DNA from: a virus
Direction: 5' to 3' (one strand)
DNA: 64,000 nucleotides
Virus record (IMG/VR): IMGVR_UViG_3300045988_126619
Coordinates: 1-64,000 of that record
The notes beneath the pieces were generated by a model. It was not told where the DNA came from. It searched no databases and was given only the letters and a program-made list of their open reading frames with translations. A program made the translations under genes and the position numbers. Positions 8,686-60,871 of the stretch are shown here, piece after piece. The first letter of the stretch is position 1. Each line of letters opens with the position of its first letter.

Positions 8686-8802
8686 TGTTTATCCTCCTTA
8701 TAAATAAAGAGTTTATTGATTATCATTTATCTTATTTAATTGTGTCCCTAATTTATGTTTTTATTATATAATAAAATAAATGATAAGTCAACAACTTTTC
8801 TA

Positions 8803-9144
8803 TTATTTATTTCTATTAATTTCTCCTGCAATTGCCTGTCTTATTTCTTCGATATCTTCCTTTGTTAATGAAGGGAATCTCTTTAATAGTAATTCATCAA
8901 AATAATCTGATTTTTTCGCATATTTTATAATTACTTCTTGCAATTCCAATCTAAAGTCTTCATCAACTCTATTCCAAATACCCTTTGCAACATTTAACAC
9001 ATAATCATATTTTGTGTTGGCTAATTTTAATTTAACATAAGCACTAATTTCATTCCAATTTCTTATAATTAGTATAATTACAACAAGTCCTACAGCTACT
9101 ATTGGACAAGCTTGTAATAATGTAATAAATTCCATTAATGTCAT
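8803..9144 (-). CDS. Membrane protein, candidate holin.
   Basis: One N-terminal hydrophobic helix (ACPIVAVGLVVIILII) followed by a charged tail. It lies immediately upstream of the endolysin. Confidence 0.35.
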   Translation of the reverse strand: MTLMEFITLLQACPIVAVGLVVIILIIRNWNEISAYVKLKLANTKYDYVLNVAKGIWNRVDEDFRLELQEVIIKYAKKSDYFDELLLKRFPSLTKEDIEEIRQAIAGEINRNK

Positions 9145-9159
9145 ATACGACCGCTCCTT

Positions 9160-10000
9160 TTAATATACATTTATCCAAGTTGCACCTTGTTTATAATATA
9201 AGCTTTGTGGTGCAACCCACGCTCCATTTACTTTTACATATAAGTCTTTACCATTAATCCATGAACCATTTACTTTAATCCTAAATACGTCTGGTTTACT
9301 AAATGGCACATAATTATTTTGACTATCCAAATCATTATCATAGATTGTATACAATCTCGTCATTCCATTTGCAATAGGGTCAGTAAAAGTTCTTCCATCT
9401 CTGTCCCAACCTTTATCTATAGCATAATAAAATCTATTATTTTGTTGAACATTTGGAATAGTCATTGTTATAGATACAGAACCACTATGATTTTGATAAC
9501 GATAATCTCCATCCCAAACTCCATTAGCATAAATACAAAGTGCTTCATCATGGTGACAACTATCACTACTTGAGCCACAACTAGAATAACATTTAAATAT
9601 TATTTTATCTCCGAGGATTATATATATTATCTCCTTTACTTGGATTTAACCCATCGAAACCACTATAATCTCTAAAACCATACCAATGTTTTAATGGTAT
9701 GTCTTTTCTGACAGTATCTACGTTTTGTGGTTTATCCGCAAATAAAACATAAAATATTTCATAATCATCTCTATTAGAATTGATATCCCAACTTATTTTT
9801 ACTTGACAAGGTGGTATAAATTCTCCTGCAAATTTCGCAATAGTTTGTTCTTCTTTATTGTAACAAGCATTTGATGAACAACAATAATATATATATACAG
9901 GTTGTCCATCAACATTTAACCCATCGACATCTAATGTTAAGTAATCTCGCCAATGTTTACCATCAATTTTGTCATGTTCCCAACTCCAATTTGATACCAT
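9160..10000 (-). CDS. Hypothetical structural-region protein. ORF 9605..10000 fuses to 9160..9465 (plus its open upstream extension) through a +1 shift at CGG (plus 9611-9613).
   Basis: The zero frame reads ..AAT CCT CGG AGA TAA. The +1 frame GGA GAT AAA.. (GDKIIFKCYSSCGSSSDSCHHDEALC..) stays open with no start codon and runs into MTIPNVQQ.. of the downstream ORF. Confidence 0.6.
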
Positions 10001-10017
10001 ATTTTATTTCCCCCTTT

Positions 10018-10950
10018 CTAATATTTAATATAAATATCTCCGTTTTTTCCTATACTACTAGAAGGTTCTCCGCTTCCAGTATATACTTTTGCTAAGTTGG
10101 AAATAGCTGTTTCATTGTTTTTAGCTTTTTGTAGGGCATCATTTGCTGTTGTTAACGCACCTTTGGCATCAACAACTGGACATTGTACAATCCAATAAGT
10201 ACCATTATAAACGACTAGATAAGGAACATTTGCCTTCATGTTGCTGAAATTATTTAAATAAACATCTCTTATTTCTTTTTGTCCTAAACCATTAATATTT
10301 AAAGTCGCATTAGCATTAGAATTAGCTTTAACTATTAAAATGAATTTTGTTCCTATTGAAATATTTTTGATTGTTGTTATTGTTGCAGTATAATTATTAG
10401 TGCCACTTGCAGTTACTACAGACAAACCTTCACTCACAAACTTATCATTTATATTAACTATTTGTTGGTCTATATATGTTTTTAATTCTGTTATATCTTG
10501 CTTATTTGCAAATATAATACTTGGGTCTACTTTTAATTCTATAACATCCGTATTAATAACAGCGATAACCATATCTAAAATCAATTCTTTGGTACTGCCA
10601 TCACTTATAATTGGTTTATAGGTTTCTGCACATTTGCAAATAGCTATTAAATCGCCATCTGTATCGTAAACACCATATTCTCTAATATAGAATCCTCCTA
10701 TAGTTGAAGGTATAATAGCTTCAATATGAATCCAATTTGGATTATCTGAATCAACAGTAATTTGATTAATACCAACTTCATAAACTTCATGCACTAAACT
10801 TGTTTGGTCTTCTGTTGGTTCATAATATTGTCCGTTACTATCCCCAATTTTCATTGTTGAAAAAATCACTCTTGTTCCAAACGAGATTGCATTGGCTATT
10901 TTTGCTTGCCCTATTTTTGTAACTATTGTGTAAAAATTACTATTAGCCAT
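10018..10950 (-). CDS. Tail fibre protein with a P2/Mu-type tail-collar N-terminal domain.
   Basis: N-terminus is MANSNFYTIVTKIGQAKIANA..MKIGDSNG..PTEDQTSLVHEVY..GGFYIREYGVYD. Its C-terminal module is shared with ORFs 11728.. and 13354.. Confidence 0.7.
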   Translation of the reverse strand: MANSNFYTIVTKIGQAKIANAISFGTRVIFSTMKIGDSNGQYYEPTEDQTSLVHEVYEVGINQITVDSDNPNWIHIEAIIPSTIGGFYIREYGVYDTDGDLIAICKCAETYKPIISDGSTKELILDMVIAVINTDVIELKVDPSIIFANKQDITELKTYIDQQIVNINDKFVSEGLSVVTASGTNNYTATITTIKNISIGTKFILIVKANSNANATLNINGLGQKEIRDVYLNNFSNMKANVPYLVVYNGTYWIVQCPVVDAKGALTTANDALQKAKNNETAISNLAKVYTGSGEPSSSIGKNGDIYIKY

Positions 10951-10998
10951 TCACACATCATCTCACTTTCCTTGTATTATCATTTATTTTATTTCTCA

Positions 10999-58561: not shown

Positions 58562-58812
58562 GCTTTAGCATTGTTTATTTTATTATAAACATAATCAATT
58601 GTATATAATGGCATTGTTTCATATTCCTCTAATAAATCATTTAAACAGTGCATCCTGTCTTCTATAACTTTTATCAATACTTCTGAGTTGGTATTCATCA
58701 AATGAGATTCTAATTTAATCTTTTCATCAATAATTTTGTTCCTTTGTTCGTTTAGTTGCATAAAGGTTAATCCTTCTTTCATTTTAATTCCTCCTACCCT
58801 ACATATATACAT
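58549..58812 (-). CDS. Hypothetical protein.
   Basis: 87-aa ORF. Confidence 0.3.
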   Translation of the reverse strand: MYICRVGGIKMKEGLTFMQLNEQRNKIIDEKIKLESHLMNTNSEVLIKVIEDRMHCLNDLLEEYETMPLYTIDYVYNKINNAKAWED

Positions 58813-59105
58813 ATAAACTTTTTAAATTTTACTTTTTCTAATTCTTCTTTAGCTTTATTTTCAACAAATTCATAGTCATACTCATAATAATGTTCCCATA
58901 ATTCATCAATTAAACATTCTAAATAATCATCTTTATTCATCCAATGTTCACCATTCCATATTGCTAAATCATTGATAGAAACATTATAAACTTCTCCTTC
59001 TATACAACTATAATCATCAAAATCAATTGAATCATTAACGAATACTTTTATTTCTGCTGTTGGATTATCTTTAATTAATTGTTTTAATTCTTCTGAATAA
59101 TTCAT
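58794..59105 (-). CDS. Hypothetical protein (probable start MNYSEEL).
   Basis: The ATG with an AAGGGAG RBS was chosen. The track start is at 59126. Confidence 0.35.
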   Translation of the reverse strand: MNYSEELKQLIKDNPTAEIKVFVNDSIDFDDYSCIEGEVYNVSINDLAIWNGEHWMNKDDYLECLIDELWEHYYEYDYEFVENKAKEELEKVKFKKFICIYVG

Positions 59106-59501
59106 ATAAATCATCTCCCTTATCATTTATTTTATGTATTAATTATAACATAATAATTTATATAATACAAGTACAAAAATTTGTTTTTTTGAATAAAGTT
59201 TAAATATTATCTTTTTATTATTCTAACTCTACCAATAAAATATTATCTTTGTACTTGTAAAGTAATATATGAACGAATGTGAATATGTTACTTATTATAC
59301 TTAGAGTTTATGCAACCTACCCTTCCCCTCCACTCTTGGAGGGAATACTCAACAATCCAGTAGATTGTTTCGTTGCAATAAAAAGCAAGCAATTTTATTG
59401 CTAATTATACATAAATTATTATTTTTATATTTTGTACATTTATAAAAGTAATAATATATATAATATATATATTATAGGAATTACAAATGTACAAAAATAT
59501 T

Positions 59502-60605
59502 TTATTGTAGTATTAAAGACATAATATCTTTTGTTATATTATCATGTTTTATATCTATTACATCACCAGTTATCCTTAACATAGTTTCTATAAAATCGTC
59601 ATTATTTCTATAATCATATTTAACATTATCTCCTTTTCTATTTTCAATATTTTTATTAACATTTTCTATTTCCAAATCATTTATTCTAGTTTTATAATGT
59701 TCTATGTCACAATCATCAATCCCAATACTATAAAGGTATTGTTTTATTTGATTTATGTCGTAATTTATTTTTATTGCTCTAAATGAGAATTTAAAGTTTT
59801 CAAAATCTACTTGTTGTCTTATAAATTCATTTGTTAACTTAGAATATTCTCCCCATTTGCCTTTTTTTATTACTTCGTTTTCTCCATTTTCTCCACATTC
59901 TAACTTTATTAATGCTTTTCTTTGACATTTTCGTATTATATCTAATTCATAATCAGTACATAATCTTGGTCTAGTGCTTATTATATTATATTCATAATCT
60001 TCGTCTATATCTCCAAATTCATTAAATATTTTATTATTTGATACACCTTTTAATTTATTATAAACTATCATTTTTGAATCCTTGTCACAATCTATTATTC
60101 TTAATTTATCTAGTTTGTCCAAAGCTTTTAATAAATGAGATTTTATAGTTTTATTGGTAGAATTAAAATGGTCATGAATATATTTTATGTTGGTATTAGT
60201 GTAACAAGCGTATCTACCTCTATTTTTATTACAAGTATTATAATTTACATTTATTAGTCCTGTTTTTTGCATTAAATACATTATACTATATACTGCTATT
60301 CCATCTTTTACAAAATCTATATTTTTATTTCTATCATCAGCCATTATGTGTAATAGTATTATTATCTCTAAATCCTGTATATTTTCTAATCTATCAAACC
60401 TTTCTTTTCTTTTATCCTTTATTTCTTTTTGAACTTCAAATACTTCATCTATTATATATTTTCTTCCTTCTGTATGGTATTTACATAATGATTCTAATTG
60501 TTTAATTTGAGCAATTTTACTGTTTCCTGTTTTAATTTCCCAATTTAAAAAATTACAAACCTCCTTCCAATTCTTAAACACTTGTCCTTTTTTTAATTTC
60601 TTCAT
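59502..60605 (-). CDS. Hypothetical protein (367 aa).
   Basis: ORF with an RBS. No motif recognised. Confidence 0.4.
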   Translation of the reverse strand: MKKLKKGQVFKNWKEVCNFLNWEIKTGNSKIAQIKQLESLCKYHTEGRKYIIDEVFEVQKEIKDKRKERFDRLENIQDLEIIILLHIMADDRNKNIDFVKDGIAVYSIMYLMQKTGLINVNYNTCNKNRGRYACYTNTNIKYIHDHFNSTNKTIKSHLLKALDKLDKLRIIDCDKDSKMIVYNKLKGVSNNKIFNEFGDIDEDYEYNIISTRPRLCTDYELDIIRKCQRKALIKLECGENGENEVIKKGKWGEYSKLTNEFIRQQVDFENFKFSFRAIKINYDINQIKQYLYSIGIDDCDIEHYKTRINDLEIENVNKNIENRKGDNVKYDYRNNDDFIETMLRITGDVIDIKHDNITKDIMSLILQ

Positions 60606-60624
60606 ATATTTTTCTCCTTATAAT

Positions 60625-60807
60625 TTATTTTATGTTTATATGCCAATTATGGCAGTTTTCTTTTCCCACACATCTAAAACAACAACTGCTTCCATCTTCA
60701 CAGCCATAAATTCTTCTTTCCTGTGGTATTTCATCAACTTCTTTTAACCATTCTTCTAATGGTGTCATAAAATCTTCATCATATTTTTTATTTGACATAG
60801 TTATCAC
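60625..60807 (-). CDS. Small Cys-rich hypothetical protein.
   Basis: 60 aa, ..CEDGSSCCFRCVGKENCHNWH. Confidence 0.35.
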   Translation of the reverse strand: MITMSNKKYDEDFMTPLEEWLKEVDEIPQERRIYGCEDGSSCCFRCVGKENCHNWHINIK

Positions 60808-60871
60808 TCCTTTATCATTTATTTTATGTTTATATTATAGCACAAATAACTAGTGCTGTAAAGAGGTCTGA

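Follow-up and report, generated by a model that had tools for sequence, protein, structure and literature searches.

Which molecule reads a short intergenic word that recurs, gene after gene, along a phage genome? The question is raised by IMG/VR virus record IMGVR_UViG_3300045988_126619, a 159,468-bp record (labelled G000 here) with terminal repeats and 27% G+C, whose first 64 kb (positions 1 to 64,000) form the window analysed. Gene direction in the window changes at ~62.7 kb, from the minus strand to the plus strand; the structural module occupies 1-37 kb, with portal and terminase genes at 33-36 kb, and six tRNA genes are located at 43.5-47.4 kb. A motif of ~17 nt had been predicted from the window sequence as recurring, always in gene orientation, just upstream of ribosome-binding sites, and was interpreted primarily as a promoter for a YonO-like RNA polymerase (RNAP) or a phage sigma factor and secondarily as an operator or as an RNA processing or translation element. 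It is the operator that the evidence favours, through the coverage of host-type promoters (37/42), an inverted copy in a promoter spacer and a homologue of the repressor MrpR. Judged from sequence comparison, the motif is probably a double-stranded-DNA site that serves as an operator and in a 'stoperator'-like array, its most likely reader being an MrpR/YopR-family protein encoded at 90006-90983, outside the window.

The repeated motif is real. It has the form (a/t)AC-ATAAAATAAA-YR-ATAA and is 16-18 nt long, AT-rich and asymmetric. Searching the window for its plus-strand pattern TTATYRTTTATTTTAT gave 15 exact matches where dinucleotide shuffles predict 0.02, and with up to two mismatches there are 44 copies against 8.1 expected. 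The whole genome holds 34 exact copies, and none of a reversed control pattern; with at most one mismatch it holds 85, about 76 of them intergenic though intergenic DNA makes up 14% of the genome. In strictly intergenic DNA, 65 co-oriented copies were found where an order-3 Markov model trained on that DNA predicts 0.75, an enrichment of ~87-fold, so the frequency exceeds what AT-rich intergenic composition would give. All copies listed in the original prediction exist, two of them at shifted positions (56095 for 56086 and 56146 for 56136) and two, at 41969 and 52885, with two mismatches each. By the gene map, 84 of the 85 copies are co-oriented with the local gene (75 against 5 by a cruder coding-strand measure); the orientation rule thus holds apart from one exception, the plus-strand copy 8771-8786. 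An Rfam scan of the window brought only tRNAs and a RAGATH-18 RNA above threshold and no family match at the motif. An exact-word scan of viral contigs, a collection that may omit the phage's own record, gave only single scattered chance matches and no second genome with the same word.

Across copies, the conserved block comprises 18 nt: A (83%), C (62%), ATAAAATAAA, a variable pair and ATAA. The TG and CA variants described earlier were confirmed, the pair at positions 11-12 being TG in 50, CA in 23, TT in 9 and TA in 8 of 94 copies. The CA form is found in 7 of the 12 late-region copies (1-48 kb), in 15 of the 67 right-arm copies and in 1 of the 15 copies of the left early arm (48-63 kb). 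Overall, the early arms exceed the structural module, which has 5 copies in 1-37 kb, ~6-fold in copy density. A reading of the TG variant as an upstream open reading frame (ORF) starting at the ATG within the motif was rejected: neither the frames nor the stops are consistent, and the CA variant lacks an ATG.

Where do the copies lie relative to promoters? Because a low-threshold consensus scan returned 145 sites in 20 kb against 152 in shuffles, only near-consensus TTGACA/TATAAT sites matching at 11 or more of 12 positions were used. A motif copy with up to two mismatches lies near 37 of the 42 near-consensus intergenic sigma-A promoters and within the spacer of 26, where it occupies two registers 5 bp apart (19 at +5 and 7 at +10). 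In class A (16-19 copies), TTGAC is followed by the motif and NN-TATAAT, so that the motif fills the 17-bp spacer from -30. In class B (~14 copies; further promoters of its TAATAT type exist beyond the 42-promoter set), the order is TTGACA-N4-motif, the TGA of the motif forming an extended -10 with TAWAAT and the word being shifted by 5 bp relative to class A. In a few cases (106624, 87273 and 87188) the motif precedes a -35 box by 4-11 nt. Standalone copies make up at least 28 of the 85 and terminate 9-26 nt ahead of a start codon (mode and median ~13); they follow an upstream stop, a hairpin or a tRNA-like end, or lie in the 5' untranslated region (5' UTR) of a promoter at variable distance (60812, 59120, 76937, 106686 and 107800). 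A position just upstream of ribosome-binding sites therefore describes roughly a third to half of the copies, the rest lying in or beside sigma-A-type promoters.

Four of the five textbook promoters proposed earlier were recovered, all on the minus strand: a class A promoter at 39731-39703, with motif 39711-39726 filling the spacer from -30, and three of class B or its type, at 51896-51868 (motif 51871-51886, TGA-TAATAT as extended -10), at 56171-56143 (10 nt from the place first given; TTGACA 56171-56166, motif 56146-56161) and at 57974-57946 (TTGCAA-17-TATAAT, containing motif 57949-57964). The fifth, 57364-57336, has a poor -10 (TAAAAG) and is really an exact TG copy next to a Shine-Dalgarno (SD) sequence: motif 57339-57354 (-) is preceded by TTGACA at a distance of 4 nt and followed by SD/ATG at 13 nt. 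Among the exact copies, a single one is inverted: 8771-8786 (+) fills the 17-bp spacer of the minus-strand TTGACT-17-TATAAT promoter 8791-8763, an arrangement that makes sense if the word is an operator but would serve no purpose in a promoter. The 5-bp offset between the two registers is compatible with occlusion by a clamp-like binder and not with a fixed promoter element.

Could the word lack a dedicated reader, being a favoured AT-rich spacer that multiplied as promoter cassettes were duplicated, or a short homology marking cassette boundaries for recombination? Duplication is obvious for some class B promoters, which share long upstream sequence (79677, 80185, 82980 and 84574), and copies do lie at gene boundaries. 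Yet these 16-18 nt persist at four or more different positions relative to promoter elements, and also alone before SDs, with no conservation of the flanks, and the ~87-fold enrichment was measured against a model of the same intergenic DNA. We consider an origin of this kind highly improbable.

The same placement bears on the leading idea of the original prediction, namely that the motif is the promoter of a phage transcription machine, with a start at its 3' edge before the SD and with the in-promoter copies doing early and late service. The machine would be either the YonO-like single-chain RNAP (48234-51122, minus strand) or the host core enzyme with the only sigma factor of the phage (141411-142199, outside the window). 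Host-type promoters incorporate more than 30 copies at two fixed registers, the array is densest in the early arms and thin across the structural module, and the inverted copy 8771 would fire antisense. A sigma-dependent promoter is further opposed by the absence of a -35: upstream of position -2, the 28 SD-adjacent copies show no information content and no -35-like block, a result that covers bipartite promoters and not those of the -10-only T4 gp55 type. On the other side, the word is asymmetric, gene-oriented and 16-18 nt long and ends in ATAA followed by G, resembling promoters of single-polypeptide RNAPs, and it is anchored ~13 nt before start codons. Several copies lie past terminators, and copy 47615 heads the tRNA/late region downstream of the YonO gene, the place where SPbeta has its YonO-dependent start (PMC5467207). 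Moreover, no YonO promoter is described in the literature, and no alternative repeated intergenic word that could serve as late promoter was found, the search returning only SD-like words. SPbeta YonO, however, uses a single start site (PMC5467207), and no SPBRE-like word (the SPbeta repeated element, described below) was found between yonO and the late genes of the SPbeta-like phage Goe14. A conserved block downstream of the YonO gene, sought between G000 and its relative G001 as a candidate YonO promoter, was likewise not found. Taken with the comparison of other phages given below, these observations make a phage promoter unlikely. A sporulation-sigma -10 element (CATAnnnTA) was also set aside, given the lack of -35 conservation and the cross-phage evidence.

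The motif is very unlikely to act in RNA, whether in translation, as an enhancer or standby site, or as a cleavage site just ahead of the SD (for example for the beta-CASP RNase encoded at 43843-45297). At least 30 copies lie upstream of the transcription start or the -35 of their own promoter and are therefore absent from that mRNA, which neither RNA processing nor translation can account for, and no second copy precedes the SD in mRNAs made from class A and B promoters. The pair at positions 11-12 would read UG or CA, which are very different in RNA, no Rfam family matches the motif, and the SPbeta element that is its probable counterpart is bound as DNA by MrpR (PMC10516654). What speaks for an RNA element is that at least 28 copies end 9-26 nt before a start codon regardless of how far away the promoter or the upstream stop lies, that the word is A/U-rich and unstructured and that the phage encodes an RNase J-like protein.

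A candidate reader of the DNA site is encoded in the right arm. The protein 90006-90983 matches Pfam family PF22822 (MrpR_N_CB) at 41 bits against a cut-off of 27 and is the sole match in a genome-wide profile search (45 bits). Its best PDB matches are MrpR/YopR structures 8bj6/8a0a (E 1.5e-5), and yopR is its only match in Goe14. A tblastn search of phages with the protein did not recover SPbeta, whereas the profile and PDB searches did recover MrpR/YopR; a search of contigs for close MrpR relatives of this phage found none. The preceding gene, 88690-89991, matches Goe14 YopQ (E 3e-13), so the yopQ-yopR order is kept as in SPbeta and G001; the YopQ homologue also shows a DndB match below threshold, and the recombinase upstream of it has no likeness to YopP detectable by BLASTP. 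Promoter 88613, directly upstream of the yopQ-mrpR pair, belongs to the few promoters that lack a copy in the spacer and has just one two-mismatch copy in its 5' UTR, a pattern that fits an autoregulated repressor operon. Around this locus, the 14 kb from 87274 to 101191 contain no copy with at most one mismatch and hold the recombinase, yopQ, mrpR and ~15 downstream genes; this segment may be a module expressed in the silent state.

In the Bacillus subtilis prophage SPbeta, MrpR (YopR) is a monomeric master repressor with a tyrosine-recombinase fold that represses PaimR and PyosX (PMC10516654). Its site is SPBRE, which was predicted in 1999 and shown in 2023 to be bound by MrpR using chromatin affinity purification sequencing (ChAP-seq), electrophoretic mobility shift assays (EMSA), isothermal titration calorimetry (ITC) and reporter fusions, with 10 binding peaks reported (PMC10516654). 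The terms stoperator, roadblock, orientation and elongation are absent from that paper. We recovered SPBRE in Goe14 as ACAAAAAATATGTATA, and the same word is present in the 'aimR promotor' binding oligo, just upstream of TTGACT. Goe14 has 9 copies with at most one mismatch and ~13 good ones at up to three mismatches; all good copies are co-oriented with the downstream gene by the gene map (8/9 and none opposed by the coding-strand measure). They are found within promoter spacers, immediately ahead of a -35 (aimR) or directly against an SD (yopM, yopV and yonO positions), and these placement rules are those of the G000 motif.

Do the rules follow MrpR, YonO or sigma? Each of four further MrpR-bearing phages has a word of its own: G001, with YonO 55% and MrpR 22% identical, has ACAAATTAATGTATAA in 23 copies, L143 has AACAAATTAATAGA (10 copies in 20 kb), L147 has AAATTAATAGAA (15 copies in 20 kb), and G008, with an MrpR_N_CB protein at 57 bits, has AATG[AT]TTTAATCAAAA in 30 copies. 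All these words are oriented and obey the same placement rules, and the word of G000 was not found in the relatives. G008 (98% complete) yielded no YonO homologue even with the catalytic core at E<=1, and a sigma-70 region-2 search gave no match in Goe14 or in G001 (54% complete). Therefore, the rules travel with MrpR and not with YonO or sigma, which also counters a phage promoter.

Might another phage protein, such as the DndB/ParB-like YopQ homologue (88690-89991) or an unrecognised small regulator, read the operator array, with MrpR absent or accessory? YopQ is co-conserved with MrpR in G000, G001 and SPbeta and has the sub-threshold DndB match, and the authors of the MrpR study suspected additional specificity factors in vivo (PMC10516654). 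L143 and L147 have a common word, yet their MrpR homologues are only 25-28% identical. However, the direct ChAP-seq, EMSA and ITC evidence in SPbeta is for MrpR (PMC10516654), and no DNA-binding domain was seen in the proteins best conserved between L143 and L147. A different reader seems to us an unlikely solution.

With MrpR as the putative reader, a mechanism can be proposed. The protein 90006-90983 would bind the word, and copies on or next to host-type promoters would act as operators that block initiation by host RNAP, the occluded span being -32 to -15 in class A, -27 to -10 in class B or the DNA just upstream of the -35. Promoter occlusion is the straightforward reading of copies in or near promoters and, for the SPbeta homologue, has experimental support at PaimR and PyosX, from which it would extend to this phage by analogy. 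The two registers, half a helical turn apart, should be no obstacle for a C-clamp protein. Standalone copies before ribosome-binding sites would work as orientation-matched roadblocks that halt read-through and spurious transcripts ahead of each gene. A site right before the SD would insulate its gene from all upstream spurious starts, which are presumably frequent at 27% G+C, as illustrated by the loose promoter scan (145 sites in 20 kb, the same as in shuffles). In a lysogenic or plasmid state, the combined effect of the sites would be silencing of the two early arms and of part of the late arm.

Several observations weigh against an operator array read by MrpR. Copies stay ~13 nt from the start codon even in gaps of 50-140 nt, an SD anchoring tighter than a roadblock needs. 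The copies 47615, 45767, 114485, 128345 and 151550 directly follow terminator-like hairpins or a tRNA-like end, where a promoter would be useful and a roadblock redundant, and 47615 coincides with the place of the SPbeta YonO-dependent start. The words do not track MrpR identity closely: besides the common word of L143 and L147, the MrpR of L141 is closest to that of G000 (35%), yet its repeated word is unrelated. The sequence common to the motif and SPBRE, ACA-(A/T)AAAATA...TG...ATAA, needs a 2-nt gap and could be chance in 27% GC DNA. Finally, the operator model leaves the TG/CA dichotomy without explanation. Because the SD anchoring, the copies next to terminators, copy 47615, the mismatch between MrpR and word and the TG/CA split fit poorly, we retain a small chance for the phage promoter discussed above and consider a double duty as well, quite unlikely though it is. 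Here the motif would be an MrpR-type operator and roadblock in the silent state, and in lytic growth the SD-adjacent copies, especially the CA copies at 47615 and before late genes, would be promoters or entry sites for a YonO-type RNAP; this would explain the fixed distance to the start codon and the copies that follow terminators.

The individual copies in the window illustrate the placement classes; all those described here are on the minus strand. In the structural module and its surroundings, a TG copy with one mismatch (8720-8735) lies between promoter 8791-8763 and gene 7888-8685, 34 nt from the ATG of the latter, and an exact TG copy (10977-10992) is separated from the upstream stop by 6 nt and from the ATG of 10018-10950 by 26 nt. 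The exact CA copy 14574-14589 abuts the upstream stop 14 nt before the start of 13354-14559 in the structural module, that at 24819-24834 is located behind a hairpin 13 nt before the ATG of 24413-24805, and the CA copy 29963-29978 (one mismatch) lies 9 nt past the stop of 29988-31034. A terminator-like hairpin comes next, as it does after copy 51871, both as originally described. A degenerate CA copy with two mismatches (41969-41984) abuts the SD of an exonuclease-like gene (40752-41957), and the exact CA copy 43818-43833 lies 16 nt before the ATG of 43565-43801.

Three exact CA copies are located in and near the tRNA region: 45767-45782, directly past a tRNA-like 3' half and 36 nt before the ATG of 45425-45730; 47615-47630, which heads the tRNA/non-coding region ahead of the late genes and lies directly past a terminator-like hairpin; and 48189-48204, within ORF 47804-48277. 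The tRNA-like 3' half (45783-45830, minus strand) has a GGTTCAATTCC T-loop and a 7-bp acceptor-like pairing TCGGTGT/ACACCGA and was not called by ARAGORN. This ORF and the 3' end of the YonO-like gene overlap, and visual inspection of the N-terminal residues of its product suggests a GIY-YIG-like protein, as in homing endonucleases; the yonO gene of Goe14 is likewise interrupted by an extra ORF. Three successive terminator-like hairpins (47440-47660, minus strand) lie between the YonO/homing-endonuclease block and the tRNA array and may insulate the late region from host RNAP. The gene of the beta-CASP/RMMBL (RNase J/CPSF-like) nuclease (43843-45297, minus strand) adjoins the tRNA cluster. Between tRNA-Glu and tRNA-Asn, ~900 nt (46204-47111, minus strand) contain no ORF and no Rfam match at the gathering threshold, and this segment may be a large structured RNA freed by tRNA processing. 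The equivalent place in Goe14, after yonO/hup, has ~1.8 kb of non-coding DNA with skipping-rope and DUF3800-VIII RNAs.

The exact TG copy 51132-51147 directly adjoins the SD of the YonO-like gene, much as an SPBRE-like copy precedes yonO in Goe14. The YonO-like gene, which is context and lies outside the array, encodes a protein with 34% identity to SPbeta-group YonO over 86% of its length by tblastn; megablast against phage records gave no match, the homology being visible only with tblastn. The sigma-70-family protein carries a C-terminal NUMOD/I-HmuI-like DNA-binding module (sub-threshold), and a class A promoter containing the CA variant drives its gene.

Further along the left early arm, motif 54232-54247, a 25-nt hairpin and the degenerate motif 54182-54197 form a unit (54182-54247) ahead of a TnpB gene, and the class B promoter with motif 56146-56161, a 26-nt hairpin and a second motif (56095-56110) form another (56095-56171), the ATG of a UvrD-like helicase gene following 22 nt beyond the second motif. 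The two hairpins (54198-54222 and 56111-56136, minus strand) are near-identical, GTGGTTAG(G/A)AATTATATCT(T/A)A(A/G)CCAC, each between two motif copies, and the paired motif-hairpin-motif units resemble a promoter-leader cassette that was duplicated. A conserved leader hairpin, ACTTGTAAGGAAC..., follows many promoters of classes A and B at ~+1, some of these hairpins with a U-run (78470, 87245 and 146928 in G000, 51839-51867 in the window, and also 81990 in G001); such leader hairpins could be 5' stabilisers or attenuators. The TnpB gene (52785-54156, minus strand; IS605 family, Cas12f1-like_TNB and OrfB_IS605) is directly followed by the RAGATH-18 RNA (71 bits), presumably its guide (omega) RNA, and a mobile element thus appears to lie within the early-left arm. 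Of the remaining copies, the exact TG copy 59120-59135 begins 6 nt past a TATAAT box (~+1) and lies 14 nt before an ATG, and the TT variant 60618-60633 is located behind a small palindrome 12 nt before the ATG of 59502-60605. At 60812-60862, promoter TTTACA-17-TATAAT (60862-60834) is followed after 6 nt by motif 60812-60827 in the 5' UTR, with SD and ATG 13 nt on.

If the proposed operator array is correct, one integrase-derived repressor would silence a 159-kb clostridial phage or phage-plasmid through ~90 oriented sites, ~9 times as many as in SPbeta, and roughly a third of these would stand alone before ribosome-binding sites. This would suggest that MrpR-family repressors act beyond promoters, as orientation-matched roadblocks, in convergence with actinophage stoperators. 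It would also remove the most conspicuous candidate for a YonO promoter and so narrow the search. For annotation, a practical rule would follow by which immunity groups and early promoters could be recognised in uncultured SPbeta-like gut phages: locate the MrpR gene, then the oriented word.

How does this array compare with known systems? The promoters of single-polypeptide RNAPs of the T7 type (T7, T3 and SP6) are short, asymmetric, gene-oriented words, and the T4 late promoter TATAAATA is a short, -35-less, gene-oriented and AT-rich one. The motif resembles both in being a short, asymmetric, AT-rich and gene-oriented word shortly upstream of the SD in many copies. In contrast, those promoters are not known to be embedded in host promoters at fixed registers and mark middle or late genes, whereas the distribution here is reversed. 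The C1 operators of phage-plasmid P1, a large plasmid-like prophage, are asymmetric sites of ~17 bp bound at many dispersed places by a monomeric repressor. The motif is likewise an asymmetric site of ~17 bp dispersed over a large genome; the repressors are unrelated, however, and P1 has fewer sites. To our knowledge, neither gene co-orientation nor SD adjacency has been reported as a rule for C1 operators.

For the L5-type repressors of Cluster A mycobacteriophages, sites lie in short intergenic gaps in one orientation, and flipping a site abolishes the block (PMC9283540). Like the Cluster A stoperators (L5 gp71, Bxb1 and TipsytheTRex; PMC9283540), for which a monomeric two-domain repressor is the model, the motif is a short asymmetric site with more than 20 copies genome-wide, in promoters and in short intergenic gaps, in an orientation that matches transcription. 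The candidate reader nevertheless has a tyrosine-recombinase fold (MrpR_N_CB) rather than a helix-turn-helix plus stoperator domain. Since it belongs to a different family from gp71, the array can be said to work like the Cluster A system but not to be a member of it. Moreover, the hosts are clostridial rather than actinobacterial, dozens of promoters carry the site here against one to three there, and the elongation block is proposed by analogy.

The closest parallel is SPBRE/MrpR. This phage encodes YonO, keeps the yopQ-yopR pair and has an MrpR-family protein, and its motif, like SPBRE, is asymmetric, ~15-18 bp long and A-rich, with an internal TG and a C near the 5' end, is co-oriented with genes and occurs in promoter spacers, just upstream of -35 boxes and abutting SDs. 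It differs in sequence (ACATAAAATAAATGATAA against ACAAAAAATATGTATA), in number (85-94 copies against 10 peaks, or ~13 words in Goe14), in extending to the structural and tRNA regions, in its two fixed registers within promoters and in that binding is predicted only. Most likely, then, as far as sequence and synteny can tell, the array is this phage's counterpart of SPBRE and a new example of the known SPBRE/MrpR kind, with unusually many sites.

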